The notes under the pieces are model-generated. The model saw nothing but the letters and a program-made list of their open reading frames with translations. It was not told the DNA's origin and made no database searches. Below, piece after piece: positions 49,068-64,000 of a DNA stretch of 64,000 nucleotides. This stretch comes from Spirochaetia bacterium (GTDB lineage: Bacteria > Spirochaetota > Spirochaetia > UBA9216), in the NCBI GenBank assembly GCA_963677925.2, contig CAXXYH010000004.1, positions 1,088,001 to 1,152,000 on the forward strand. Direction: 5' to 3'. The first letter of the stretch is position 1. Every line of letters begins with the position of its first letter. The position numbers and the translations under genes were made by a program.

Positions 49068-50000
49068 GTGACGGGAGGATATGAAGTGGATGAGATAATC
49101 AGATGGCTTCTTGAAGGCGATGCCTCGATCGCGTATCAGACCTGCCGTGACCTTCTTGATACAGACAGACCTGAACTTCAGATAAAAGCCGCTGGCGAGG
49201 GGTGGGGTAAAATTCTTCTTGATGCACAGCGTCCCGACGGTCACTGGGGCCTGAAGTTCTATCAGCCCAAATGGACATCTACCCACTATACGCTGCTGGA
49301 TTTACGCAACCTGTGCATTCCTGCTGAAACTCCAGCAGTGCAGGAAACTGTTGAAATGCTTCTGGAGCAGGAGAAGGGTGTGGATGGAGGAATAAATCCG
49401 CCCGGATCTGTAAAACAGAGTGACGTCTGTTTAAACGGAATGTTTCTGAATTATGCCTGCTATTTTAATGCTGATCCTGAAAAGCTTGTATCAGTAATTG
49501 ATTATATGCTTGATCAGAGACTTCCAGACGGCGGATATAACTGTCAGTTTAACCGCAAAGGTGCTGTTCACAGCTCACTGCATTCCAGTCTTTCCGTAGC
49601 CGAAGGCTTCACCGAATACCTGAAAAACGGCTACTCCTACCGAGCCGATGAAATCAAAAGCTCTCTCGGCGGGATTCGTGATTTTATCTTTCGGCACAGA
49701 CTGTTCCGTTCAGATCGAACCGGTGAAATAATTAAGAAAGATTTCCTCCGTTTTCCGTATCCGCCGAGATGGCGTTATGACATTCTGCGGGCAATGGATT
49801 ATTTCAGGTATTCGGAAACGCTTTACGCCCCGGCTATGGATGAAGCAATAGCTATAATCAAAAGCAAGCAAAAACCTCCCGGTCACTGGAACGCCCAGGC
49901 CTCCCTGCCGGGGCAGGTTCACATTCATTTTGAACAGGCTGGCACCCCCGGCAGGTGGAATACGCTGCGGGCTCTTCGTCTACTTAAATTTTATTGCTGA
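49068..50000 (+). CDS. prenyltransferase/squalene-cyclase-fold hypothetical protein
   Basis: QRPDGHW and QRLPDGGYNC repeats; WRYDILRA; RWNTLRAL. Confidence 0.7.
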   Translation: MTGGYEVDEIIRWLLEGDASIAYQTCRDLLDTDRPELQIKAAGEGWGKILLDAQRPDGHWGLKFYQPKWTSTHYTLLDLRNLCIPAETPAVQETVEMLLEQEKGVDGGINPPGSVKQSDVCLNGMFLNYACYFNADPEKLVSVIDYMLDQRLPDGGYNCQFNRKGAVHSSLHSSLSVAEGFTEYLKNGYSYRADEIKSSLGGIRDFIFRHRLFRSDRTGEIIKKDFLRFPYPPRWRYDILRAMDYFRYSETLYAPAMDEAIAIIKSKQKPPGHWNAQASLPGQVHIHFEQAGTPGRWNTLRALRLLKFYC

Positions 50001-50042
50001 TTCGTCACAGGTCTGCTAATATAAAATAAAACGGATAAAGTA

Positions 50043-51116
50043 TTGGCAGTTGAAATCGTTTATGAAGAAAATAATAAAATTGGTATAATTTTCCCTTTTG
50101 ATGCCCAGATTCTGGATATTGTACGCACAATACCCGGAAGACAATGGCAGCCCGCAAATAAAAAATGGACATTTCCGGATACTGATGCAAATATGCAGCA
50201 TTTTCTCTTATCATTATATAAAACCGGCAGGTTTAATGTGGATGAGAAGGCTCTCGAAAATCAGGAACCGTCTCATAGCCGCTATTTGGAAAAAATGCTT
50301 CAGTATCTAAAGCTTAGAGACTATAGTCCTCATACTATTGAAACGTATAAGATGCAGCTCAAGTGGTTCTTTGATAGAACAGAACTTTCTCCTTCAGAAG
50401 TCACGACCGAGGATATCAAATTATATCTGGAGAAAATGCGGACACTGGCGGGGTGTTCAAGAACATACTTTGTACAATGTGTGAGCGCCCTGAAAAGCTT
50501 CTATAAGTATGGTTATCCCGGCGGTCTGTTTAATCCTGCAGCATCGATTCCCATGCCGAAAAAAGAAAAGAAGTATCCGGATATTCTATCCAGGGAAGAA
50601 GTGAAGAAGATAATAACATCTCCGTCGAATATTAAGCACCGATTGCTATTATCATTAATATACTCTGCAGGTCTCCGAGTAAGCGAAGCCGTTATAATAC
50701 AGTTGCAGGATATTGATACCGATAGGAAAGTAATTCATATCAGGCAGGCAAAAGGACGAAAAGATAGATATGTAATGCTTTCAACTGAGATTATTAATAT
50801 GATTAATCAATACAGATCCAAAGTGATGGTGCATACATGGCTTTTTCCTGGCAGTGCAGGTGCGGATACCCATCTTGCTACAAGATCTGCACAGAATGCC
50901 TTTTATAAAGCTATAGAAGCAACAGGTATCGAAAAAAATGTAAGTATACATTCTTTAAGACATGCCTTTGCCACTCATCTGTTGGAAAACGGTACAGACC
51001 TGAGATATATTCAGGAGCTCTTAGGTCACCGTGATCCAAAAACAACACAGATTTATACACATGTAAGTACTAAAGACCTAAAAAATATAAATAGTCCACT
51101 GGACGGGTTATTATGA
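50043..51116 (+). CDS. tyrosine recombinase associated with the cassette array (HARP-like + SAM-like + catalytic domains)
   Basis: GLRVSE, AKGRKDR, HSLRH, LGH, IYTH catalytic residues intact; LRDYSPHTIETY SAM-like domain; directly upstream of the first cassette. Confidence 0.93.
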   Translation: MAVEIVYEENNKIGIIFPFDAQILDIVRTIPGRQWQPANKKWTFPDTDANMQHFLLSLYKTGRFNVDEKALENQEPSHSRYLEKMLQYLKLRDYSPHTIETYKMQLKWFFDRTELSPSEVTTEDIKLYLEKMRTLAGCSRTYFVQCVSALKSFYKYGYPGGLFNPAASIPMPKKEKKYPDILSREEVKKIITSPSNIKHRLLLSLIYSAGLRVSEAVIIQLQDIDTDRKVIHIRQAKGRKDRYVMLSTEIINMINQYRSKVMVHTWLFPGSAGADTHLATRSAQNAFYKAIEATGIEKNVSIHSLRHAFATHLLENGTDLRYIQELLGHRDPKTTQIYTHVSTKDLKNINSPLDGLL

Positions 51117-51190
51117 ATAACAGGTTTATAAGGATTTAAGCTGGAGGGTTATATGAATGATATACCAGTTTATAATTCTGAGTTTATATG
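51117..51190 (+). other. candidate primary integration (attI-equivalent) site
   Basis: between the recombinase stop and the cassette 1 start (TTATATGC at 51184); TATAA-TTCTGAGT-TTATA core and a GGGTTATATGA box complementary to TCATATAACCC of the long attC-like sites. Confidence 0.45.
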
Positions 51191-51265
51191 CAATGGACCC
51201 GACAAGAGGAAGACGCCCGGACCTCCGGCCGACGGGCGAAGAGACATAAAGGTGGGGGATTTTTT

Positions 51266-52735
51266 ATGCAAGATTTATATATAAAATATAATAAGAAAGA
51301 TAATAAAATTGATTTTGGGCAAACAAAAGGCTCAATAATCGAGATTACTATAAAGCCACCTTCAATCGTTAAAGAAACAAAAGAAACAGGCATAACGAGA
51401 ATATCTGCTATTCAAGAAGATTTTGATAATCTAATTTCGGGAAAGAAGATGATTGACGTTAATAAAACGACTCTCGAACATTGTTATATCTTGGATAAAA
51501 AGGATCCTTACCGATTAGCGGCGACAAATTTTATTTTAAAAAATGAAAAGGATATTGAAGAATATAGTGAAATTCCAAAAGAAAATGATGCTGGTATATA
51601 TAAAAACTATGTAAAAGCATTTTTAGAAGAATTTACAAGATGTACGAAACACATTCCGTTTGCTGAAAAAATTAAAGTCTATCCTTTACCATTGTTGACT
51701 CCATGTAATGTGGAAGTATTAGTAGGTAAAGATGGTGTGTGCTTTATTTTCTCATCAGAAAGTAGACCTGAAAAAGTAAGTGTTTCCTTAGATATAAATA
51801 AAATAATAGAGGAACTTCTTCTGCCTCATCCTACTAATAGAAGATATTCATCATATGGACCTAATACTATTTTTAATTTTATCTGCTCAGATGAGAATTT
51901 TATACATGTGGTAGGGGATGGGAATGCGTTTTTAGATTCTATGCTAGGGAATCCAGTATTTTTGATTTTTGAAAAATCGTTTCATGGTTATTATTCCAAT
52001 ATGAATTTTATAAGAAATTATCCTGATACGGGACTTCAAGTTAAAAAGAAAGTTGAATATTGTGAAATATTTGGTAATAACCATATCTCTAACTTTTCAC
52101 TTGAAAACGCAAGGAGTAGAGCTAGGATAGTTGCGTATAAATCAATTTTGAGTAGTGTTACAGGAAATGTTAATAAAGTAGAAGAACTTAAAAATGTCTT
52201 GATAGAATTGAAAAACAAAATAAACAATGATGTCGGTGAAATAGAAATTGAGAAATTTATTGATTCAAATAAATGGATTTTAGAGAAAGGGATAGGGTGT
52301 CAAAAATATTTTTCACAAATTTCGATACCGAAAGATTTATTATATGATGCTGATGGTGGAATTAAACCTGATAAATATATGATGAATAATGACGGATATT
52401 GTGATATTTTAGATTTAAAAAAACCATCAGCCAAACTAATTGTAATAAAGAATAACCGCAGTCATCAATCTAGTTCTTTAACCGAAGCGGAGGCACAAAT
52501 TGATAAATATATTGATTTCTCTCGTGAACCAAAGGTTAGAGATTATTTATTAACGCTTAATATAAAAATTACGAAACCTGATGGAATTGTATTGATTGGG
52601 AGAACCCCGAAGGAATATTTAAAAGAATGGATTGATATAAAAAAGAGATTACAAATAAAAGTATATACTTATGATGATTTAGTTAATAATTTGGATAATT
52701 TAATTGATTGGATAGATAAGATTCTTACAATTTGA
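51266..52735 (+). CDS. cassette 1: Shedu-like (DUF4263) anti-phage nuclease with long N-terminal region
   Basis: C-terminal E.EIEKFI..N.WIL, KPD, ILDLKKP, LTEAEAQIDKY, P.GIVLIGR, VYTYDDL; start moved to 51266. Confidence 0.75.
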   Translation: MQDLYIKYNKKDNKIDFGQTKGSIIEITIKPPSIVKETKETGITRISAIQEDFDNLISGKKMIDVNKTTLEHCYILDKKDPYRLAATNFILKNEKDIEEYSEIPKENDAGIYKNYVKAFLEEFTRCTKHIPFAEKIKVYPLPLLTPCNVEVLVGKDGVCFIFSSESRPEKVSVSLDINKIIEELLLPHPTNRRYSSYGPNTIFNFICSDENFIHVVGDGNAFLDSMLGNPVFLIFEKSFHGYYSNMNFIRNYPDTGLQVKKKVEYCEIFGNNHISNFSLENARSRARIVAYKSILSSVTGNVNKVEELKNVLIELKNKINNDVGEIEIEKFIDSNKWILEKGIGCQKYFSQISIPKDLLYDADGGIKPDKYMMNNDGYCDILDLKKPSAKLIVIKNNRSHQSSSLTEAEAQIDKYIDFSREPKVRDYLLTLNIKITKPDGIVLIGRTPKEYLKEWIDIKKRLQIKVYTYDDLVNNLDNLIDWIDKILTI

Positions 52736-52788
52736 ATTAAGAATCCAGACCTAACTCCGTTGAACGGTCTGGATGTCGGGTCCAAAGC

Positions 52789-52882
52789 ATAAAACAGGGG
52801 CTATGTGTATCGTCGCTATGCGCTCCTCGGGCTGCGCCACATACGGCTACGCCGTACGTCACATAACACCGGGACGTTATGA
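52789..52882 (+). repeat. attC-like site 1 (short, 94 bp)
   Basis: ATAAAAC-AGGGGCTATGTG...CACATAAC-ACCGGGAC-GTTATGA. Confidence 0.85.
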
Positions 52883-52993
52883 GCAATAAGCCCGACAAGT
52901 AAAAGACGCCCGGACCTCCGGCCGACGGGCAAAGAGAGACAGTGTGATAAAATATTATACTAAAAAAGTAAATATAGAATTAAGGGTTTTCAT

Positions 52994-53587
52994 ATGAAAA
53001 AAATAATATGTGTTCTAATCCTTTACATATTATCTATTTTTAGTTGTGTTACAACAGAAACTGTAAATATCAAGAAAGATAGTATGGAAAAGAGTGATTC
53101 TGTCTCTAAAGAAGAATTCAAAATTAGCATAAAAGAATTTGATGATATTTCAAAATATAAAAAGCTTATAAATTTATATGCATTTAAATATAGTGATGAG
53201 AGCAATACAGAATTTCGAGTTTTTACAGGTAGATGTTCAGCTTTTGTCAGGGACAATGGATATTCATCAATATTGCTGAACAATTCTGATGAGAGAGAAA
53301 TAATAAATAGTTATGAAGGTGATTATGAAAAAATTGCTATTATAAATGTCCATACAGTTGATTTAGATAAAGAAAATGGGAAAATTATAATAATCATGTT
53401 TGGAATAAATGATGATGATAAAGAAAAAATATTGTATGTACCTTTTTGGATTGCTACAGCAGAAGGTAAAAGTGTTGAGATTTTGAAATTAAAAAGTAGA
53501 GAAGAAGTTGGAAAATACATGATAGATTGTTTTTTTAATAATATGGAAATTTCTAATGAGTTGATTTATACATTAAGTGGAAATTAG
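52994..53587 (+). CDS. cassette 2: hypothetical lipoprotein
   Basis: MKK...IFSC lipobox; AT-rich. Confidence 0.75.
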   Translation: MKKIICVLILYILSIFSCVTTETVNIKKDSMEKSDSVSKEEFKISIKEFDDISKYKKLINLYAFKYSDESNTEFRVFTGRCSAFVRDNGYSSILLNNSDEREIINSYEGDYEKIAIINVHTVDLDKENGKIIIIMFGINDDDKEKILYVPFWIATAEGKSVEILKLKSREEVGKYMIDCFFNNMEISNELIYTLSGN

Positions 53588-53660
53588 ATTATTCATAACA
53601 ATGAAGGATAAAGAATCCAGCCCTAACTCCGTTGGACGGTCTGGATGTCGGGCTTAAAGC

Positions 53661-53755
53661 TCATAACAGGGGCTATGTGCTTCGTCGCTATACGCTCCTC
53701 GGGCTGCGCCACATACGGCATTCGCCGTACGTCACATAACCCCGGGACGTTATAG
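53661..53755 (+). repeat. attC-like site 2 (short, 95 bp)
   Basis: TCATAAC-AGGGGCTATGTG...CACATAAC-CCCGGGAC-GTTATAG. Confidence 0.9.
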
Positions 53756-53848
53756 CGCAATGAGCCTGACAAGATGAAAATCGCCCGGACCTCCGGCCGA
53801 CGGGCGAAGATATATATATGCTAAGTATCCAAAAAAGGTGATATGTAA

Positions 53849-54385
53849 ATGAATTATCAAACAGTCTATGATATTTCTAAATCTTCTTATAATTGGGTAT
53901 TCCCCTTTTTAGGAATACTTATAACCATTTTATTAATAATTTTTACTAAAGTGGTAAGAAGAAACTTGAAAGTTTTAAATAGGATAGAGGCAGAAAAAGA
54001 AAAAAAGGAAATTTTCTATAATTTTAATAATCCATATGTGAGTAATATGTTGAGACGATTACCCATGGTTTTCACGATATTGGCTTCTATAGCGACCGTT
54101 TTTATAACTTATGGATCTATAAATTATTATGTGAAATTAAATGAAGTGATTCAAAATCAAGAGTATTCAGTTGTTGAAGATAAAATAAAAATTATTAATA
54201 AGTTTGAAACAAATAGAATTCAAAATTTCAAAGTTGGAAAATTTATTTTTAATGTTGCGGATATAAACTCCATCAGAATCTCATTTTGGAAATCTGGAAC
54301 ATATGAAGATTTTTTAGTTGAAGGTCAAGATGTTAAAGTTTATTTTTATGGAAAGTATATTTTGCGTGTTGATTTAATGAAATGA
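53849..54385 (+). CDS. cassette 3: two-TM hypothetical protein
   Basis: AGGTG RBS; two hydrophobic helices plus a soluble C-terminal domain. Confidence 0.75.
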   Translation: MNYQTVYDISKSSYNWVFPFLGILITILLIIFTKVVRRNLKVLNRIEAEKEKKEIFYNFNNPYVSNMLRRLPMVFTILASIATVFITYGSINYYVKLNEVIQNQEYSVVEDKIKIINKFETNRIQNFKVGKFIFNVADINSIRISFWKSGTYEDFLVEGQDVKVYFYGKYILRVDLMK

Positions 54386-54520
54386 ATATGCATGCAAAAT
54401 TTCTATTCATATAGTTACTATTAAAGAGTAATTACTAAGAAATTTGAGTATTATTTTAGCATATAAGAGTGGGAATCCAGACCTAACTCCGTTGAACGGT
54501 CTGGATGTCAGGCTCAAAGC

Positions 54521-54843
54521 GCATAACAGGGGCTATATGCTCGTCGCTAAACGCTCCTTGGGCTTCGCCACATTTTTATTTTCTGAATTGGGTAATTGGG
54601 TACAGCATTTAACAAGAGATTTGGAGTAGTCAAAACCTTTGTCACAGTTCTGGCTAAAGACACTCCGCGCTGATCGCGCTACGTTCCAGAACTGCGCCAA
54701 GCCTCGGAGACTCGGCCGGTTTCGCTACTCAAATCGTCGTTAAATGCACAGAAATGTGCCAATAGTTTATGATTGAGAAATACGGGTAAGTGGTGGTAAA
54801 ATTAAGAAAAATAAAAACGTCATATAACCCCGGGGCGTTATGA
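54521..54843 (+). repeat. attC-like site 3 (long, 323 bp)
   Basis: same ends as the short sites, with an approximately 240-bp structured arm replacing the ACGGC..GCCGT hairpin. Confidence 0.85.
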
Positions 54844-54960
54844 GCAATGAGCCCAACAAGAGGAAGACGCCCGGACCTCCGGCCGACGGGCGAAGAATCG
54901 ATTGGTTTGATTTTTATAACTGATAAGTGATGTCAAAAGTAATATAAAGAATAGGTTGGT

Positions 54961-55680
54961 ATGGATATACAAGAGGATAAAGTAAATAATAATTTGATTG
55001 CGCAAGATTTAGAATTAGGAGTAATAACTATGGGGGCAGCAACGATTGATCAAAGACATAATTTTGCATACCAACATATGCACTCAGCTATTGAATTTAG
55101 GAATCAAACTTATAAAATTGAAGAAGATAATAAAAACGAAAAATTTGGATATTTTTTTGAGTTGATTAGAACATATGTAAGTGGTTGTATATTCTTTTCA
55201 GTGGCTTCAGTAGAGGCAAATATAAATGAAATTATATGTGATATTATTGAAAATAAAATAAAATTAGGTGAGTTTGAAAAAAAGAAAATTATTGAAATAA
55301 ATGATAGAGAGTCTACTCTTAAAAAATACGAAATCATATTAAACGAGGTAATGAAGTTTGAATTATCAAAAGATAAAGAAATTTATCAAAATATGAAAAT
55401 TTTAATAGATGTAAGAAATGCTTTTACTCATTTCAAACCAGAATGGGAATCAAATCAGAAATGGCATGATAAAATTGGAAGAAAATTATCTGGGAAAATC
55501 AAGATGACTCCATACATAGAAGATAGCAGTCCGATTTTTCCGATGCGTTGCATGACTTATGATTTTTGTTGTTGGTCCACAATATCAAGTTATAATTTTA
55601 TGAAAGAAATTTTTAGTTTACTATCAATAAGAAATAAATTTGAGAAATTTGAAGAAACAATTTATAAGGGTAGTAATTAA
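54961..55680 (+). CDS. cassette 4: HEPN-like protein
   Basis: ASVEANINE helix and RNAFTH (R-X4-H) motif. Confidence 0.6.
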   Translation: MDIQEDKVNNNLIAQDLELGVITMGAATIDQRHNFAYQHMHSAIEFRNQTYKIEEDNKNEKFGYFFELIRTYVSGCIFFSVASVEANINEIICDIIENKIKLGEFEKKKIIEINDRESTLKKYEIILNEVMKFELSKDKEIYQNMKILIDVRNAFTHFKPEWESNQKWHDKIGRKLSGKIKMTPYIEDSSPIFPMRCMTYDFCCWSTISSYNFMKEIFSLLSIRNKFEKFEETIYKGSN

Positions 55681-55761
55681 TATAATTATATAGCTTATTT
55701 TTATAGTGTAAGGGAATCCAGACCTATCTCCGTCGAACGGTCTGGATGTTGGGCTCAAAGC

Positions 55762-56085
55762 GCATAACAGGGGCTATATGCATCGTCGCTAAATGCTCCT
55801 CGGGCTGCGCCACATTTTTATTTTGTAATTGGGTTAATAGGGTATAGCATTTAACAAAAGATTTGGAGTAGTCACAACCTTTGTCACAGTTCTGGCTAAA
55901 GACACTCCGCGCTGATCGCGCTGCGTTCCAGAACTGCGCCAAGCCTCGGTGACTCGGCCGGTTTCGCTACTCAAATCGTCGTTAAATGCACAGACATGTG
56001 CCAATAGTTTATGATTGTGAAATACGGGTAAGTGGTGGTAAAATTAAGAAAAATAAAAACGTCATATAACCCCGGGACGTTAGCT
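55762..56085 (+). repeat. attC-like site 4 (long, 324 bp)
   Basis: near-identical to site 3. Confidence 0.85.
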
Positions 56086-56213
56086 GCAATTTCGGTCATG
56101 GTAATTATCTAATTAGTAGGAGCCCGCCTTCCATGGCGGTCAGGATAGAAGAAGTAAATATCTACATTTTGATACATTTTTTAAATAAACAATCTAAATA
56201 ATAAGGAATTTTA

Positions 56214-56933
56214 ATGAAAAAAAAGAGAATTATATCAATACTTCTATGTCTTTTTTCAACATCGGTCTATGCAGAAACAAATGATGTTCCAAATGGAATG
56301 ATCATAGAATCATCTTCTAATAATGGACAATCAATTCTTGTAAGAAAACATGACCAAGTTTTGACGATTGATTACTCTGCGCACGATTTTCAAATGGTTA
56401 TTTATGATTCTCCAATAAATAAAGAAAAAATTGGGGAATTGAAAAAGAAGGATGTAATACGAATAAAAGAAATACATATTATTGATGATAACGAAATGTG
56501 GTTTAAAATTTCTGCTTCTGAGAAAAATGGTTATATCTTATTTAAAATTGGTGAAAATATTTATGATTTCTACGCTGATAATTTATGGCAACCAGTAGAA
56601 ACTATTCAGAGTGGGGAGCAAACTTGGCATACATTAAAATGTAATCAGAGTTTTATTGTTTATACTAATTTGTTTATTCGTGATAAACCTGGATTTGGTG
56701 GGGAAAAAATAGGAATGATAACTGCAAATAATAGCAATTCCGAAATAGTAAGCACTTCAGAAGTTACTGTTGAAAAAGAGAAGATTGATGGAAAAACTGA
56801 ACGCTGGGCTAAAATTGAATATTAAGGACTAATTGGTTGGGTATTTGCAGGTTATTTGAGTTATGAAAGAGGTGGGCCTAGGTTTAATACTCCCGAATCA
56901 ATGATAGCAATGAGTCTTGGCGCAGGTATTTAA
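56214..56933 (+). pseudogene. cassette 5: secreted SH3-domain protein with an in-frame stop at 56823-56825
   Basis: signal peptide; NLFIRDKPG...WAKIEY*GLIGWVFAGYL is an SH3b-like motif split by TAA; the frame continues to 56933. Confidence 0.7.
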
Positions 56934-57040
56934 ATTTTTAGATATTATTATAATTCGTGGAAATTTAAATTGTTTTACAGAGTCAAATACATCCTTGTAT
57001 TTGACAGAATTAATCACTTGACAACCATGACGGAAACAGC

Positions 57041-57367
57041 AGCTAACAGGGGTTATTTGCTTCGTCGCTATGTGCTCCTCGGGCTTCGCAACATTTTTAT
57101 TTTTGTAAATGGACGATATGACAAAAGGCATTTAACAATGATTTGCAGCAGTCCTGGCTATTTTCACGGTTTTAGCTAAAGACGTTCCGCGCTGATCGCG
57201 CTGCACTCTAAAACCGAGCCAATGCCGTAGGAGACTACGGCCGCCAGGCAGCTGAAATCGGCGTTAAATGCACAGACATGTGCCAATAGTTTATGATTGA
57301 GAAATACGGGTAAGTGGTGGTAAAATTAAGAAAAATAAAAACGTCATATAACCCCGGGACGTTATAC
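57041..57367 (+). repeat. attC-like site 5 (long, 327 bp, divergent arm)
   Basis: AGCTAAC-AGGGGTTAT...CATATAAC-CCCGGGAC-GTTATAC. Confidence 0.85.
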
Positions 57368-57399
57368 GACATATCACATATCTAAAATGGAGTAAAAAA

Positions 57400-57807
57400 G
57401 TGAGTGAAAGACCGTTTAAAGAAAAATCGAATGAACCTACAAACGAAAAAATAAATGAAGCACTCGGTGCTGTTTCCGAATATTATCATGATTTAAATAA
57501 ATTGACAAAAGATTTTCAACACACCTGGAATCATTCAAAATCCAGTGGCTGGATGGAAAAAGTAGAAGATAATAAAAAAGCTCTTTACTATTTTATTCCG
57601 TTGAATGATTCCTTTATTCTGAGTATGGCTATTAGAGAAAATGAAAAAGAATATTTTGAGTCTAAAGAGGGTATGGTAAAATATAAAGATATAGTATCAA
57701 CCGCCAGAAAATATTCGGAAGGATATAATATAAAATTTGAGGTAGAAAACTCTGAGCAATACGATTTTTCAAAAGAGTTTGTAAAAGAAATAATTGCTCA
57801 AAGGTAG
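57400..57807 (+). CDS. cassette 6: DUF3788-like hypothetical protein
   Basis: P..E.I.EALG...W...K.SGW..K....KK.L.Y..P....F, ARKYSEG pattern; GGAG RBS with GTG start. Confidence 0.6.
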   Translation: MSERPFKEKSNEPTNEKINEALGAVSEYYHDLNKLTKDFQHTWNHSKSSGWMEKVEDNKKALYYFIPLNDSFILSMAIRENEKEYFESKEGMVKYKDIVSTARKYSEGYNIKFEVENSEQYDFSKEFVKEIIAQR

Positions 57808-57821
57808 ATATGTGAAACGTC

Positions 57822-57915
57822 GTATAACAGGGGCTATGTGCTTCGTCGCTATACGCTCCTCGGGCTGCGCCACATACGGCTTCGCCGTACGTCACATAAC
57901 CCCGGAACGTTATCT
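57822..57915 (+). repeat. attC-like site 6 (short, 94 bp)
   Basis: GTATAAC...GTTATCT; body nearly identical to site 2. Confidence 0.9.
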
Positions 57916-57977
57916 GACATACCCAGAAAAGTTCCGACCCTCACCATCCGTGGTTCGGGTTTTAAGAAGAAGAGAAA

Positions 57978-58724
57978 ATGAATATTGAATGTATTATTAA
58001 AGAAGCTGGAAGAAAGTTAAAGAACGAATATTTGGAAACGCCTCTTGTCTCAGTTAAAGAAAGATATGATTTAGTAAGTCAAAGTGATAAGAGGATTGAA
58101 GAGGAATTAATAAAAGAGATTATAAAGTTGTTTCCAAATGATGATATTTATTCAGAAGAAATTGGAGAAATTAAGAATGAAGGAAGATCAAGATGGATTA
58201 TAGATCCAATTGATGGAACCGCTGATTTTATTTTTGGAGTCCCGTACTTTGCAATATCAATCGCAAAAGAAGTAGATGGGATAATTGAAGAAGGTTATGT
58301 ATATAATCCAATATCGGAAGAGTTTTATAAATCAATTAAAAATGAAAGAAAATCCTACCTCAATGATGTAGAAATAAAAGTTTCAGAAAAAAATGTAATT
58401 GAAGAATCTTTAATTGCTTTCGGATTTAGTGCCAATGAAGAGAATATGAATTTATATCTTTCTGAATGGTCTAATCTCATGAATGATTGTAGAAAGGCAA
58501 TGCCATTAATCACTCCTGCATTAACAATTTGTAATGTCGCAAGAGGAAGGATCGACGCTTACATAGATTTTGGTTCAAGTATGGAAGGAAAAGCTGCTGC
58601 CAGTATGATATTGCTGAATGCAGGAGGAAGTATTCGGAATTATTATAGAGAGGGTTTTGATCATAGAGAAAAAGGACATATATGTAGCAATGGAAGATTG
58701 GATCTTGAAGAAGGAAGAGGTTAG
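57978..58724 (+). CDS. cassette 7: inositol monophosphatase family protein
   Basis: DLVSQSD, SEE, WIIDPIDGT, VARGRIDAY. Confidence 0.88.
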   Translation: MNIECIIKEAGRKLKNEYLETPLVSVKERYDLVSQSDKRIEEELIKEIIKLFPNDDIYSEEIGEIKNEGRSRWIIDPIDGTADFIFGVPYFAISIAKEVDGIIEEGYVYNPISEEFYKSIKNERKSYLNDVEIKVSEKNVIEESLIAFGFSANEENMNLYLSEWSNLMNDCRKAMPLITPALTICNVARGRIDAYIDFGSSMEGKAAASMILLNAGGSIRNYYREGFDHREKGHICSNGRLDLEEGRG

Positions 58725-58783
58725 GAAGAAAAATAAGTACATCCCTGTACTTATTTTAGAGGTATAATAAAAATGGGTACGTC

Positions 58784-58875
58784 AGATAACAAGGGTTACA
58801 CGCTCCGGCCATACGGCCTGCGGGCTGAGCCACATTCGGCTACACCGAACGTCGTGTAACCCTGGAACGTTATCT
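58784..58875 (+). repeat. attC-like site 7 (short, 92 bp, divergent)
   Basis: AGATAAC-AAGGGTTACACG...CGTGTAAC-CCTGGAAC-GTTATCT; compensatory stem changes relative to the other sites. Confidence 0.85.
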
Positions 58876-58990
58876 GCAATGTTTCCGCCAAGAGGAAGAT
58901 GCCCGGACCTCCGGCCGACGGGCGAAGAAGAATGAGGTTTGAATATACTAATTAGTGAGATAAGATAAAATAAAAAAATGAGGTAGCATT

Positions 58991-59560
58991 ATGAAAGTGT
59001 TTATTTTAACTGTTTTAGGAGTAGTCTCAACAAGAATTTTGGATTTATTCACTACATATAAAATTACTCCGGATTTAGAGAAAGAAAGTAATTTATTTGT
59101 AAAGTTGCTTGGGGAAACTGGAGGTTGGGCAGCGATTTGGATATTTCAAGCAATTGTAGTAATTTTACTTCTCTATTTAGAATATTTAAGAATAAAAAGT
59201 CCAACCGTCGAATATGTAGAAGATGAGGGTTTGAAATTTAAAGAATATTTTTCATTAAATTATTCGAGTAAGAAAGATGATTTAATAAAATCAGTAATGA
59301 ATTTACCATTAAAGAAGAGGTTGATGATCGATCTATTAGGATATATTGGTACAAGAACTTTACTATTTGGAACAATTCCTGTCTGTTTATCAAGTCTGTT
59401 TGCGATTTTAAACTCTTCTTATCGAAGTTTCTATGTAGATAATAGTTTATGGAGAATACTGTATTTAATAATGGCAGTAGTATTAGTGAGTTTTTATATA
59501 AGATTTTTTTGGATAAGATTTAAGGATTATGAGAAGAAAGATATTTTAAAGAAAATGTAA
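58991..59560 (+). CDS. cassette 8: hypothetical membrane protein
   Basis: four TM segments; DLFTT....PDL.KESN motif. Confidence 0.75.
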   Translation: MKVFILTVLGVVSTRILDLFTTYKITPDLEKESNLFVKLLGETGGWAAIWIFQAIVVILLLYLEYLRIKSPTVEYVEDEGLKFKEYFSLNYSSKKDDLIKSVMNLPLKKRLMIDLLGYIGTRTLLFGTIPVCLSSLFAILNSSYRSFYVDNSLWRILYLIMAVVLVSFYIRFFWIRFKDYEKKDILKKM

Positions 59561-59637
59561 GAAAGAGAGAAAGAGAGAAAGAGAGAAACCAGCCCTGGCT
59601 CCGCCGTACGGTCTGGCTGAAGAGGCGGAAACACAGC

Positions 59638-59816
59638 AGATAACAGCGGCTATGTGCGGCGTCGCTAAACGCTCCTTGGCCTACGGCATATTTTGTTTTG
59701 GCATCGCTTTTGCGAAGAGGTAGAAAAATATAGGGTAAAGGCGTCGAATGCAAAAGTGCTGCCAATCGGCCTGTAGGGCCGACCACAAAACATCACATAA
59801 CCGCGGGACGTTATAG
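59638..59816 (+). repeat. attC-like site 8 (intermediate, 179 bp)
   Basis: AGATAAC-AGCGGCTATGTG...CACATAAC-CGCGGGAC-GTTATAG with a different inserted arm. Confidence 0.85.
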
Positions 59817-59930
59817 GAAATATTTTGGCTAAGAGAAAGACGCCCGGACCTCCGGCCGACGGGCAATAAGGAAAAAAAGAATAAATTTTAAAATTGATAT
59901 ATTATGTCAATATATAAGAAATGAAACGTA

Positions 59931-61057
59931 TTGAAAAGGATTCTATTATTTTTATTATTATTAGGAATAACCTCATGTAAAAACTTTTTTCCATATTATC
60001 AAAATGGATACCATTTCAATCAAATATTTTCTAAAGATACAAAACTTATTTTAGATGAAAAAGCAGATTCATTCTCTGCGTTTATATCTGAGACTTCTAA
60101 AGTTTTAGTATATTATAGTACTGATGGGATGGTGCACTTGATAGATTTGGAAGGATTGATTGAAGTTTCCACCATCCCTTGGGTTGATAATTCAAATTAT
60201 TATAATGATATTGTTCCTGATTTTAAACAATTGTATATTTATGAAAATTATTTGTATCTTCTAGGGTCAACAGATTGTCTGGTATATTTGATTGAGGATA
60301 TATCAAATCCATCTTTTAAATATTCTATTAGTGAAAATAATACCTATAATTTAAACACTACCTATTATTTAAGTTTAAGATGTATGGATAATAAAATATA
60401 TATTTTAGATTCTAATTCATTTTCATACTATAAACTATTATTAATTTTGGATGCAGATAATATGCTAGAAATTGAAAGACATTATTTAGATTCTTTTGAA
60501 GGAGTAATTGATAAAGAAATTTACTTAAATTCAAATTATTTATACACTTTTTCAAGTGAGCTTAAAATTGATAAAGATGGTAATCCTTTTACAATAACAA
60601 ATCAAATGATTGTTTATGATATTACTGATATTTCTAATAATTATGAATTGGTCGATATAAATTCTATCAGTTTAGAGGACAATGGATTTAATATATATAA
60701 TGATATTATAGTAAGTGATGGAGCAATAGGTTTAAATTCAGAAGAGTATTTTTGGAGCATAATAAAATTAGATAGTGAAAAAAATATGAATTTCTACAAA
60801 AATGTAATTCAACAGATGAAATAAACTTGTTTAGTTATTTTGATTTAGATTTTGATTTTAATAATATTTTAATCGGGAATTATTTTGTTTATGATATAAG
60901 AGAGTTAAATAGTCCAAGATGGATTGGGACTATTGATGAGGATTTGAAAGACATCGAAGTTGTAAGAAAACTTCAAACTGGAGATAACTTATTTTTATTT
61001 GAAAAAGGTAGTGATAGTGAGAATGAAATAGCTTTAGTGAAGTATGCTTTTAATTGA
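59931..61057 (+). pseudogene. cassette 9: LVIVD-like beta-propeller lipoprotein, frameshifted near 60800
   Basis: lipobox ITSC; IEDISNP, VYDITDISN, VYDIRELNSP repeats; the two ORFs join if one A is added to the A5 run at 60798-60802. Confidence 0.65.
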
Positions 61058-61156
61058 TAAAGTTTGTTTTGGGATACTGTTAAAGTTGAAAGTTGTATGT
61101 TTAAGAGTCCAGCCCTATCTCCGATGTACGGTCTGGCTCAAGAGCCAAAATACTTC

Positions 61157-61479
61157 CTATAACAGGGGCTATATGCTCAGCCCATTCGGGCTTCGGGCTG
61201 CGCCACATTTTTATTTTATGGATTGGGCTATTTGGGTATAGCATTTAACAAAAGTTTTGGAGCAGTCCTGGCTATTGTCATGATTCTGGCAGAGACGTTC
61301 CGCGCTGATCGCGCTGCACTCCAGAATCACGCCAATGCGCGCGAAGACACGCGCCGCCATGCAGCTCAAAACGTCGTTAAATGCACAGACATGCGCCAAT
61401 AGTTTGTGATTGGTAAATACGGGTAAGTGGTGGTAAAATTAAAAAAATAAAAACGTCATATAACCCCGGGACGTTATGC
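61157..61479 (+). repeat. attC-like site 9 (long, 323 bp)
   Basis: CTATAAC-AGGGGCTATATG...CATATAAC-CCCGGGAC-GTTATGC. Confidence 0.85.
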
Positions 61480-61950
61480 GGACATCGCCGGAGCATGGTT
61501 ATGGGGTGGAGAAAGTTCCGAACAAGAAGTGATTACCAAATAGTTTGCAATATTCAATTCGCCCTAGATTGAGGAAGATTTTTGATTTTGATTTGGATGT
61601 TGTTGGAAGAAGGTCGTTAAAATTGACGAAGCTTGTTCTGGCGTGAAAGAAAAAGTATTGTCTTAAAATTATCAAAATCTTTTTTGAAGATGGAGCAGGT
61701 TTTACCATTTTGCAAGTCTGATTCACTCGCATAGCTCGTTGACTTGCGACTTAATAAAAATGATTGTTTTACTTGCAAAGGGCGAATAGAATATTGAGAA
61801 GAAATAGAAAGAGAAGATTGTATAGATTATTTGATTGATCGGAATCTTTCTCTAATAAAGGCGACGTCGCATAACAGGGCACATGCGGCTACGGGGTCAA
61901 GCCCCTTCGCCCAAATTGGCCTGCGGCCAACTTCGCATATGCCCGGGACG
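61474..61950 (+). other. cassette 10: ORF-less structured cassette (includes attC-like site 10, 61869-61956)
   Basis: no credible ORF; nested long-range complementary segments; paralog of cassette 11. Confidence 0.75.
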
Positions 61951-62426
61951 TTATGCGGACATCGCCGTAGCATGATCTTGGGGTGGAGAAAGTTCCGAAC
62001 CAGAAGTGATTACCAAATAGTTTGCAATATTCAATTCGCCCTGGATTGAGGGAGATTTTGGATTTTGATTTTGTGGTTGTCAGAAGAAAGCCGTTGCATC
62101 TGACGAAGTTTATTCTGACGTGGAAAAAAGTATTGTTTTATAATTATCAAAATCTGCTTCGTGGACTTGGCAGGGTTTTCCGTTTGGCAAGTCTGCCTCA
62201 CTCGCTTTGCTCGTTGACTTGCAGGTGAAATAAAAATGATTGTGAAAGTCGCAAAGGGCGAATAGAATATTGGGTAGAAATGGTAAGAGGAGATTTGTTA
62301 GGTCATTTGATTGATCGGAATCTTTCTCTAATAAAGGCGACGTCGCATAACAGGGCACATGCGGCTACGGGGGCAAGCCCCTTCGCCCAAATTGGCCTGC
62401 GGCCAACTTCGCATATGCCCGGGACG
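61951..62426 (+). other. cassette 11: ORF-less structured cassette (includes attC-like site 11, 62345-62432)
   Basis: diverged tandem copy of cassette 10 that keeps the paired segments. Confidence 0.75.
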
Positions 62427-62535
62427 TTATAGGAAATGCCCATCAAAATCTTTGAAAGATCCTCGCCATCCATGGCTCGGTTTAGAAGAATAGAAAGAAG
62501 TTGACAATCCACTACAATGTAATTACAGTATAAAT

Positions 62536-62820
62536 ATGGAACATATCCAGTTTGAATGGGATAATAAGAAAGATGAGCTAAATCAGAAGAAGCATAAGAT
62601 AGGTTTTGACGAGGCAAAAACTGTATTTTATGATCCATCTGCATTGTTGATTCATGATCCAGATCATTCTGAAGATGAAGAAAGATTCATAATTATGGGG
62701 ATGAGTCAAAGCTTGAAGATCTTAGTTGTTTGTCATTGTTATAGATCTAATGATGAAGTTATACGAATAATATCTGCTAGAAAAGCAGAGAAAGAAGAGA
62801 TTAGGCAATATGGAGGATGA
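62536..62820 (+). CDS. brnT: cassette 12: BrnT-family toxin
   Basis: FEWDNKK...N..KH.I.F..A..VF.D...EERF...G...IRIISARKA; candidate own promoter TTGACA at 62501. Confidence 0.9.
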   Translation: MEHIQFEWDNKKDELNQKKHKIGFDEAKTVFYDPSALLIHDPDHSEDEERFIIMGMSQSLKILVVCHCYRSNDEVIRIISARKAEKEEIRQYGG

Positions 62821-63040
62821 AGATATGAGAGATTCATATGATTTTTCGAATGCAAGAAAGAATCCTTACATTACAAAATTAAAGAAGCAAATCACAATCA
62901 GATTGGATGAAGAAACCATAGATTATTTTAAAGAGATGTCAGAAGAATCAGGGATAAAATATCAGCAATTAATAAATCTTTATCTGGCTGATTGTGCAAA
63001 GAAAAATCTAAAATTAAATATAAATTGGAAAGCCTCTTAA
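62810..63040 (+). CDS. brnA: cassette 12: BrnA-like (RHH) antitoxin
   Basis: YDFSNARKNPY...KKQITIRLD...IDYFK...GIKYQQLIN. Confidence 0.85.
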   Translation: MEDEDMRDSYDFSNARKNPYITKLKKQITIRLDEETIDYFKEMSEESGIKYQQLINLYLADCAKKNLKLNINWKAS

Positions 63041-63093
63041 AGCCCAAAGTACGTCCTGTACTTTGGGTAAATAATAAAAGTGATGGGCACTTC

Positions 63094-63188
63094 CTATAAC
63101 AGGGGCTATGTGCTTCGTCGCTATGCGCTCCTCGGGCTGCGCCACATACGGCTTACGCCGTACGTCACATAACCCCTGGACGTTAGCT
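63094..63188 (+). repeat. attC-like site 12 (short, 95 bp)
   Basis: CTATAAC...CACATAAC-CCCTGGAC-GTTAGCT. Confidence 0.9.
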
Positions 63189-63313
63189 GAAATGCCCCCG
63201 CGAAGAGAAAGACGCCCGGACCTCCGGCCGGCGGGCGATAAGGAAATTATAATATGCATAATTGATTTACAAGTCTAAATATAGTACTATATAAGCACTA
63301 ATAGGAGTTTATT

Positions 63314-63598
63314 ATGAATTTAAGAGAAGATATTAAGCCGATTTCATATATTAAAACAAACGCAGCAGACATGTTAAAACGTGTTAATGATACTCACAAC
63401 CCGATTGTAATAACCCAGAATGGTGAAGCAAAAGCAGTTTTGATGGATACTGAATCATATCAAGAAATGAGGAATAGTCTTGGAATTTTAAAATTGCTTG
63501 CAGAAGGTGAACGTGATATCGAAAAGGGAGATATCTATACACAAGATGAAGTTTTTGAAGAAATTGAAGCAAAACTGTTAAATATGAAGAAGAAATAA
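63314..63598 (+). CDS. cassette 13: Phd/YefM-family antitoxin
   Basis: IKPISYIK...PIVITQNGEAKAVLMD. Confidence 0.9.
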   Translation: MNLREDIKPISYIKTNAADMLKRVNDTHNPIVITQNGEAKAVLMDTESYQEMRNSLGILKLLAEGERDIEKGDIYTQDEVFEEIEAKLLNMKKK

Positions 63599-63602
63599 TG
63601 AT

Positions 63603-63917
63603 ATGGAAGTTATTTGGACTAAAACAGCAAAAAATGATTTAAATGAGATAGTTGAATATATAGCAAATGACTCTGTAGAAATAGCATTAAATAAATTTTA
63701 TGAAATTAGAGAAAGTACTAAACCCTTAGAGAAATTTCCTGAACAAGGAAGACTGATTCCAGAATTAAGAAATGAAAACATCTTGCGATATAGGGAAATT
63801 ATAATAAACCCATGGCGGATAATGTATAAAATAGAAGATAAGAAAGTTTATATTATAGCAGTCATAGATGGAAGAAGAAATGTTGAAGATGTTTTAATGA
63901 AAAGGCAACTTCGTTAA
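63603..63917 (+). CDS. cassette 13: RelE/ParE-family toxin
   Basis: WTKTAKNDL.EI.EYIA...FPEQGR..PEL...YRE....WRIMY...IAVIDGRR. Confidence 0.9.
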   Translation: MEVIWTKTAKNDLNEIVEYIANDSVEIALNKFYEIRESTKPLEKFPEQGRLIPELRNENILRYREIIINPWRIMYKIEDKKVYIIAVIDGRRNVEDVLMKRQLR

Positions 63918-63982
63918 AGAAACATTAAAAGAATCCAGACCTAACTCCGTCGAACGGTCTGGATGAAGAGCGGGGGCACTAC

Positions 63983-64000
63983 AGCTAACAGGGGCTATGT
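63983..64000 (+). repeat. attC-like site 13 (5' part, cut by the window end)
   Basis: AGCTAAC-AGGGGCTATGT. Confidence 0.8.

Follow-up and report, generated by a model that had tools for sequence, protein, structure and literature searches.

Matched sub-terminal hairpins in an integron-like cassette array of a spirochaete and the likeness of one hairpin class to the intergenic TD-2 element

The origin of integron cassettes is a long-standing open question. Among intergenic repeats, REP/BIME and Correia elements are short, hairpin-rich and multi-copy, and are co-transcribed with genes. In Treponema integrons, according to the available part of one report (PMC3607928), the integrase gene lies in the same orientation as the cassettes. 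Two further motifs, TD-1 and TD-2, were described in Treponema denticola only (Weinberg et al., 2007); the available part of that paper (PMC1950547) gives no function for them, reports an overlap of seven TD-1 copies with TD-2 in reverse complement, and places TD-1 usually in a 5' regulatory position. The present work deals with a window of 64,000 nucleotides from a Spirochaetia bacterium (the whole stretch of DNA that was analyzed, positions 1088001-1152000 of contig C4 in genome G000, which has 5.04 Mb in 4 contigs and 40-43% G+C) and, within it, with the pairs of hairpins that frame the cargo of the cassettes in an integron-like array. Relatives in the same family, which comprises 11 genomes in all, are referred to as G002, G005, G007, G008 and G010.

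In the window array, the class of the hairpins agreed within cassettes and not across cassette junctions. We hold as evenly balanced the reading that one cassette would consist of one cargo and one three-hairpin module cut in its middle hairpin, with outer hairpins that would punctuate expression and would be unneeded for recombination.

An integron look-alike beside a Xer-like recombinase

The array starts at 51183, downstream of a tyrosine recombinase gene (50043..51116, plus strand, with Pfam and NCBIfam profile matches) that has the same orientation as the cassettes, and extends beyond the end of the window, to about C4:1160300. As in integron attC arrays, the recombinase gene stands beside co-oriented cassettes, and imperfect palindromes with ..TAAC and GTTA.. 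boxes (AAC...GTT sites) and inner paired boxes were found between them. The cassettes are mobile units cut at G|TT, which is also the case in integrons. The spacers between R and L boxes measured 1 nucleotide (nt) on one side versus 5 nt on the other, and the half-sites in the array regions lay on one strand, with 0-2 on the opposite strand. The cargo families of the window (Shedu-like SduA_C, BrnT/BrnA, Phd/ParE, inositol-monophosphatase-family and DUF3788, besides several open reading frames, ORFs, without family match) are typical for chromosomal cassette arrays, and the Shedu-like gene and the toxin-antitoxin pairs add to the likeness to integrons.

A second, larger array was located on contig C3 of G000 (about 53-127 kb, minus strand), where type-II sites, defined below, dominate. 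It has at least two cassettes in common with the window array, and no recombinase match was found beside it, the whole G000 genome containing a single match.

The recombinase has a Xer-like core (Pfam Phage_integrase, 2.3e-42) and an N-terminal HARP-like region; its first ~75 residues matched HARP at 22.3 bits here (cut-off 25) and at 27.5 bits in the G010 homologue. It passed NCBIfam NF040815 ("XerA / integron integrase") with 232.5 bits (cut-off 220) and failed TIGR02249 (integron integrase) with 194 bits (cut-off 265), and its closest solved relative is archaeal XerA. When it was aligned with VchIntIA (2A3V), residues 253-276 (24 amino acids, aa) stood opposite residues 176-240 (65 aa), leaving the protein ~40 residues short at the IntI-specific domain. 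Judged from its sequence, the system is an integron look-alike in which one defining feature, the integron-integrase insert, is absent, and it provides a further case, on a bacterial chromosome, of an integron-like system with a Xer-like recombinase of this kind. Of 301 genomes sampled from the class, 58 contained relatives of the recombinase (E <= 1e-40). The locus further differs from integrons in that the R-box pairing extends 20-21 base pairs (bp), in that two conserved hairpins stand between site and cargo, and in that there are two site classes, one of which is able to nest in the loop of the other.

Hairpin classes and their matching within cassettes

Among the 13 cassettes of the window, seven carried class A hairpins at both ends (A/A; cassettes 1, 2, 3, 4, 8, 9 and 13), three carried class B at both ends (B/B; cassettes 5, 7 and 12) and three carried none (cassettes 6, 10 and 11). 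All ten hairpin-bearing cassettes were matched, and no mixed cassette occurred. The first-pass annotation of the window had claimed matched types and had assigned the class A pair to the same seven cassettes, all of which were confirmed; the second pair, reported there from cassettes 7 and 12, was present as described, although cassette 5 was missing from that list. Its placement of the hairpins outside the TAAC...GTTA site was borne out by their positions, all of them being sited between site and cargo.

The matching also held in a larger sample. The two G000 arrays and the arrays of G002, G005, G008 and G010, with cassette ends called by script, gave 105 unique cassettes, of which 32 were A/A, 9 B/B, 51 without hairpins at either end and 13 of other composition, so that 92 of the 105 were concordant across five genomes. 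These counts include several mis-bounded rows, half-site matching having missed diverged sites, so that some rows span two cassettes; several of the 13 discordant rows arose in this way. The lone cassette combining A with B was a 5.8-kb span. In the type-II array of G010, all 11 cassettes with a class A 5' hairpin also ended with a class A 3' hairpin when read from the listing, and the scripted table gave 10 unique A/A cassettes and none in which A was paired with no hairpin. Class A pairs were found with both type-I and type-II sites.

At the 5' end, class A is a GC-rich 23-mer hairpin, GCCCGGACCTCCGGCCGACGGGC, which was exact at 51215-51237, 52908-52930, 53783-53805, 54869-54891, 58901-58923 and 59842-59864 (cassettes 1, 2, 3, 4, 8 and 9) and had one mismatch at 63214-63236 (cassette 13); these 7 matches in the window compare with 0 in 100 shuffles. 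At the 3' end, a 32-mer hairpin (CCAGACC..GGTCTGG) occurred with up to 3 mismatches at 52743-52774, 53615-53646, 54475-54506, 55716-55747 and 63933-63964 (cassettes 1, 2, 3, 4 and 13; 5 matches versus 0 in shuffles), and further diverged copies were found at 59587-59618 and 61107-61138 (cassettes 8 and 9). Both hairpins follow one design, in which an outer stem of 6-9 bp is followed by 1-2 nt, an inner 3-bp stem, the loop TCC, the other arm of the inner stem, 3-4 nt and the other arm of the outer stem. Pairs of the class A 3' hairpin were counted by script in 27 unique hairpin stem sets: at least two Watson-Crick pair types were present at 9 of 12 pair positions, and the paired fraction was 0.892 versus 0.733 +/- 0.016 with the 3' arms shuffled (0 of 1000 shuffles as high). 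The 23-nt core of the 5' hairpin was near-invariant, and the base of its stem covaried (AGCCCG/CGGGCT, CGCCCG/CGGGCG, CAGCCCG/CGGGCTG). The compensatory changes support the hairpin stems. Coding of a peptide across the 5' hairpin of class A was ruled out, the reading frames varying among cassettes.

Class B stems were long, mostly perfect and cassette-specific, with fixed tops (5' ..GCC-NTCCNT-GGC.., 3' ..RTACA-TCCN-TGTAY..). Their 5' and 3' hairpins lie at 56122-56141 and 56982-57005 in cassette 5, at 57934-57959 and 58730-58757 in cassette 7, where the 3' hairpin begins directly after the TAG stop codon, and at 62461-62480 and 63043-63067 in cassette 12. In every hairpin, of either class, the loop TCC lay on the cargo-sense strand. 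The sense:antisense counts in the arrays of G000 were 11:0 for TCC-loop perfect hairpins, 30:1 for the class A architecture and 8:0 for GCCNTCCNTGGC.

The first-pass annotation had pointed to generic genome-wide REP elements as the case against its proposal and had suggested a search outside the array, which gave no sign of such elements in G000. For class A, the two arrays accounted for 16 of 16 matches to the 5' motif (5 mismatches allowed) and for 10 of 10 to the 3' motif (7 allowed). Outside the arrays, the class A architecture returned 41 unrelated, random-looking matches on both strands, versus 30 in the arrays; TCC/GGA-loop perfect hairpins stood at background (146/2267), and only 3 class B-like perfect hairpins were seen. 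A loose TCC-loop hairpin scan was drowned by background matches. The hairpins in G000 are array-restricted and not genome-wide repeats. They resemble REP/BIME and Correia elements in being short, hairpin-rich and intergenic, and TD-2 is also multi-copy, whereas confinement to arrays, fixed orientation and spacing to the site, and matched pairs per cassette set them apart. In the family, the class A 23-mer (up to 2 mismatches) was found in 7 of the 11 genomes, always clustered and in four of them directly beside the recombinase gene; it was identical in three of five genera, and 0 of 400 other sampled genomes of the phylum contained it.

Sites were called by half-site matching and were of two types, type I (AGGGGCTATGTG...CACATAACCCCGGGAC) and type II (AAGAGATTTGGAGTAGTC...GCTACTCAAATCGTC). 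Generic attC finders that look for an outer stem spanning a site were unsuccessful, as the long terminal stem joins the 5' and 3' ends of one cassette across its cargo and does not pair the flanks of a single site. In type I it extends 20-21 bp outward from GTT/AAC (arms at 51182-51203 and 52775-52795 in cassette 1, and at 52876-52896 and 53647-53667 in cassette 2), and its sequence is cassette-specific, with matching changes on both arms. Of the 27 type-I cassettes with both ends found, 14 paired at 12 or more of 17 positions, ungapped, against 3 of 27 in the control with the end of the neighboring cassette; some of the non-pairing ones are shifted by a one-base indel or mis-bounded.

Four type-I sites (54523-54840, 55764-56082, 57043-57364 and 61159-61476) owe their length of ~300 nt to a complete type-II site nested in the apical loop, with GCATTTAAC at 54605, 55847, 57128 and 61241 and GTTAAATGC at 54739, 55981, 57263 and 61376; the nested sites span 54605-54747 in cassette 3, 55847-55989 in cassette 4 and 61241-61384 in cassette 9. 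Hybrid junctions in the second array suggest that crossover has taken place there at the inner point as well as at the outer one. Promoter-like sequences (TTGAGA or TTGTGA, 18 nt, TAAAAT, with TG just upstream) were also noted within the long sites at 54773-54802, 56015-56044 and 57297-57326, directed toward the next cassette. A similar promoter-like leader (AATAAAAATnTTAG, 18 nt, TAAAAT) is conserved in type-II cassettes of class A, where it ends ~12 nt before the 5' hairpin (19 sequences aligned).

The TD-2 element and a three-hairpin module

The pattern RTACATCCNTGTAY gave 34 matches in 9 of the 11 family genomes versus 1 for the reversed control, and all 5 matches in G000 were in arrays. 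In G010 and G007, several lay between housekeeping genes (ClpP/PurC, Ldh_2/malic enzyme, E1-beta/E2, FGGY kinase/FAD oxidase), where the hairpin was the first of three. Hairpin 1 of this element lies directly after the upstream stop codon, the middle hairpin reads GAAGTTTG..CAAACTTC, and hairpin 3, (C)YGCC-WTCCRT-GGCRG, lies ~20 nt before the start or ribosome-binding site of the next gene. In the sister genus g5, the pattern of the middle and third hairpins was found in five genomes (29, 26, 9, 3 and 2 copies), with 1 control match; G000 and G002 had none. Rfam identified the genus g5 intergenic elements as TD-2 (RF03162; 67.5 and 54.9 bits, gathering score 48.7) on the strand opposite the flanking genes. 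TD-2 was matched 96 times at E <= 0.01 in 8 of the 11 family genomes (33 in G010 and 26 in G007); none was found in the G010 arrays examined, and none in G000, where 150 of 577 candidates were scored. In a set of 25 elements, a same-strand ORF (at least 80 aa) ended just upstream in 19 and started just downstream in 19, while an opposite-strand ORF alone was present in 2 (upstream) and 4 (downstream) cases. Hairpin 1 of the TD element had 17 G-U pairs on the sense strand versus 3 antisense.

Taken on the opposite strand, the outer hairpins of the TD-2 consensus (ccgccAuGGAuggcgg / ccgccAUGGAUggcgg and gcAcGgAUgc, or gcACGGAUgc) equal those of the class B cassettes. In this comparison, made by eye and unscored, it is the reverse complements of the class B hairpins at the 5' end (GCCCGCCTTCCATGGCGG and similar) and at the 3' end (..ACATCCNTGT.., GGCATCCGTGCC) that equal the outer hairpins of TD-2. 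The likeness to TD-1/TD-2 (RF03162, clan CL00124) comprises sequence, loop and placement at gene boundaries; the cassettes differ in that the recombination site stands in for the middle hairpin, and class A hairpins lie outside the Rfam family. Class B parts were dispersed in the sister genus as TD-2. In three further families of the class, arrays next to related recombinases also had class B hairpins directly beside AAC/GTT sites, and an Rfam search of the arrays in other families gave no match. The middle TD hairpin was itself ruled out as an attC, as it has GTT on the 5' arm and AAC on the 3' arm, the reverse of attC.

Among the papers listed by literature searches (supplements aside), none was found to tie TD motifs or sub-terminal hairpins to cassettes, and sub-terminal hairpins are unmentioned in the available parts of PMC3607928 and PMC6557892. 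The TD-1/TD-2 motifs, without function since 2007, are now placed in a defined context.

TD-2 elements were also seen to repeat the ribosome-binding-site region (e.g., TAGGAGGAATGAT) at both ends (L050-L069 in G010; L045 and L047 in G007) and to occur in tandem (L053 and L065), even within an operon (E1-beta/E2). TD-2 looks like a mobile element aimed at ribosome-binding sites.

In the reading that we favor, this spirochaete lineage would put a three-hairpin module between genes, and the sub-terminal hairpins would be its two outer stem-loops. On the ordinary chromosome of the sister genus the module would be the TD-2 element, with hairpin 1, middle hairpin and hairpin 3. In the arrays the recombination hairpin (attC-like, and lengthened in type I by the 20-21 bp stem) would occupy the middle position, the crossover (G|TT) would fall in the 3' foot of this middle hairpin, and a linear cassette would start with half a stem and hairpin 3 and end with hairpin 1, half a stem and the site. 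A cut in the middle hairpin would therefore leave hairpin types that match within a cassette and not across a junction. Class A would be an array-restricted variant of the same design. On structure and homology, it is probable that the backbone is a three-hairpin inter-gene module with a recombination hairpin in the middle.

As for function, the 3' hairpin on the cargo-sense transcript would end or protect the upstream message, and the 5' hairpin would keep the next translation start clear of the long recombination-site structure. The available part of PMC6557892 states that ribosomes are hindered by stem-loops at attC sites. Support for RNA of the sense strand comes from the orientation, which is tied to genes in arrays and TD elements alike, from the position of the hairpins right after stops and before start regions, from the excess of sense-strand G-U pairs in hairpin 1 of the TD elements, and from the promoter-like leader ahead of the 5' hairpin in type-II class A cassettes. 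Punctuation of expression on the sense strand is thus a plausible function, which we rate as slightly short of even. The first-pass annotation had offered RNA processing or stability signals as its alternative, and this would rank first among the readings. The hairpins are most likely dispensable for recombination, as 51 of the 105 cassettes are without them, yet cassettes move as units cut at G|TT.

Several observations weigh against this split-module reading. A terminator scan of positions 50000-64000 gave 10 terminator-like sites, none of them a sub-terminal hairpin; a T-run is absent from the class A 3' hairpin, and A- and T-runs on the hairpin flanks were seen in cassette 7 only. Cassettes 12 and 13, both with toxin-antitoxin cargo, have a promoter-like site (in cassette 12, TTGACA-17-TACAGT at 62501-62529) downstream of the 5' hairpin, which would therefore be missing from the cargo's own message. 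An Rfam search of positions 50000-64000, with the full TD-2 model included, gave no match at E <= 1, so that the likeness of class B to TD-2 rests on the two outer hairpins and their placement, and no class A counterpart was found outside arrays. Finally, every transition mismatch in class A stems was an A.C on the sense strand (8 in inner stems, 2 in outer stems, versus 0 G.T), and an A.C is fixed in the 5' hairpin of class A, where two variants restore a Watson-Crick pair. These A.C mismatches favor folding of the other strand, and the strand evidence is mixed.

On that other strand, the hairpins might be folded single-stranded DNA, that is, accessory arms of an enlarged recombination site made of the terminal stem and two GGA-loop mini-hairpins. 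Such arms would help the site to fold or to be bound, perhaps via the HARP-like N-terminus of the recombinase, which would replace the missing insert; HARP binds forked DNA. The mismatches just described become G.T on the bottom strand (10 versus 0), as does a conserved feature of the terminal stem: at position 11, most type-I cassettes other than class A (class B and hairpin-less, e.g., 62426-62445 with 63081-63100 in cassette 12) have an A opposite C on the top strand and T.G on the bottom, and in class A positions 10-11 show AA opposite AA. The hairpins keep a fixed distance to the AAC/GTT boxes: in class A, the 3' hairpin abuts the stem and the 5' hairpin begins 31-33 nt from the crossover. 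The class A loop then reads C-GGA-G, a GNA triloop closed by C-G, which is an unusually stable DNA mini-hairpin. Nevertheless, hairpin-less type-II cassettes fill whole arrays, the type-II class A 5' hairpin stands 75-81 nt from the site behind the promoter-like leader, class B hairpins occur at TD-2 elements without a recombination site, and TD hairpin 1 is richer in G-U pairs on the sense strand. With the 51 hairpin-less cassettes counted as well, a role of the hairpins as folded bottom-strand DNA in recombination is considered unlikely.

The dispersal of TD-2 in G010 and G007, its tandem copies and the repeated ribosome-binding-site region are what would be expected of a selfish or relic intergenic repeat, a TD-type element resembling a miniature inverted-repeat transposable element together with an array-bound cousin. 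The hairpins would then have no cassette function and their matching would reflect backbone ancestry. The association of the hairpin-plus-cargo unit with either site class, and of cargo with or without hairpins, fits as well. Against this, class B stems vary by cassette while loops and top pairs are constant, the class A 23-mer is identical in three of five genera, stems are kept paired by compensatory changes and orientation is invariant, all of which argues for selection on structure and loop sequence and makes a functionless repeat rather improbable.

A further reading concerns antisense RNA, in which the GGA loops might be sites for CsrA or a similar protein, so that the regulator would be bound or sequestered by antisense transcripts of the array. 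Antisense class B 3' hairpins (RUACANGGAUGUAY) match RUACARGGAUGU, reportedly the CsrA consensus from systematic evolution of ligands by exponential enrichment, at 11-12 of 12 positions, and no such fit exists on the sense strand. The antisense strand is also the one modeled for TD-2 in Rfam, a weak match to the TwoAYGGAY motif was obtained (E = 0.4), and G000 has a csrA gene (90.8 bits). The motif is, however, antisense to every cargo gene, the C-GGA-G triloops of class A misfit the consensus, and TD hairpin 1 favors pairing on the sense strand. As a reading of the hairpins, antisense sites for CsrA or a similar protein are considered very unlikely.

Cargo, backbone and composition of the cassettes

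As sequence comparison shows, cargo is separable from the backbone. One B/B cassette was present in both G000 arrays (99.8% identity) and in G002 (89.9%), with different neighbors each time and with homology stopping at the crossover. The brnT/brnA cargo is 78% DNA-identical between cassette 12, with class B hairpins, and a hairpin-less type-II cassette of the second array, and this homology spans exactly the inter-hairpin stretch, ending at the inner edges of the hairpins. Additionally, one cargo with class A hairpins was associated with a type-I site in G002 and with one of type II in G000, the homology covering hairpin, cargo and hairpin only.

The first-pass annotation had read such features as capture of cargo into a preformed structured scaffold. 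A shared non-coding backbone of terminal stem and two hairpins does frame unrelated cargo; in many cassettes it is structured, conserved and matched per cassette. The near-identity of backbones around unrelated cargo, together with the stop of the brnT/brnA homology at the hairpins' inner edges, favors insertion into an empty scaffold. No empty scaffold was found, though: none of 41 matched cassettes was empty, the smallest having 632 nt and a 159-aa ORF, and in the arrays examined no class A 5' hairpin was followed by a class A 3' hairpin within ~600 nt. An insertion mechanism or target duplication was not identified either, and insertion of cargo into a preformed, empty scaffold is very unlikely. 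Nor are class B hairpins specific to cassettes: they match the outer hairpins of TD-2 between ordinary genes, and the scaffold therefore looks like the lineage's usual inter-gene module and not a dedicated capture device.

The homology of the class B backbone hairpins with an element between ordinary genes offers a clue to the building of cassettes. The TD middle hairpin could be interchangeable with the attC-like site, so that a chromosomal gene with a TD-type element could become a cassette, with the outer hairpins as the footprint. This is unlikely; if true, replacement of the middle hairpin, or its evolution into a recombination hairpin, would be a concrete lineage-specific route to new cassettes.

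All cassettes of the window lie on the plus strand. The A/A cassettes occupy 51183..52876 (cassette 1, Shedu-like cargo), 52877..53749 (cassette 2), 53750..54837 (cassette 3), 54838..56079 (cassette 4), 58870..59810 (cassette 8), 59811..61473 (cassette 9) and 63183..64000, continuing beyond the window end (cassette 13, phd/parE cargo). The B/B cassettes are found at 56080..57361 (cassette 5), 57910..58869 (cassette 7, inositol-monophosphatase-family cargo) and 62427..63182 (cassette 12, brnT/brnA cargo). In cassette 6 (57362..57909), which has DUF3788 cargo and no sub-terminal hairpins, the ORF fills the cassette.

Reverse-oriented cargo was considered as a test, and the sole reverse ORFs were copies of one sequence: in the G010 array (L027-L029), an identical opposite-strand 385-aa ORF lies inside three different cassettes and is probably an insertion sequence targeting cassettes. 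Cassettes 10 and 11 (61474-61950 and 61951-62426) are two tandem copies of a repeat cassette of ~476 nt, without ORF and without sub-terminal hairpins. About ten copies of this ORF-less cassette were present in the sister genome G002, together with a second ORF-less cassette family, interleaved with coding cassettes.

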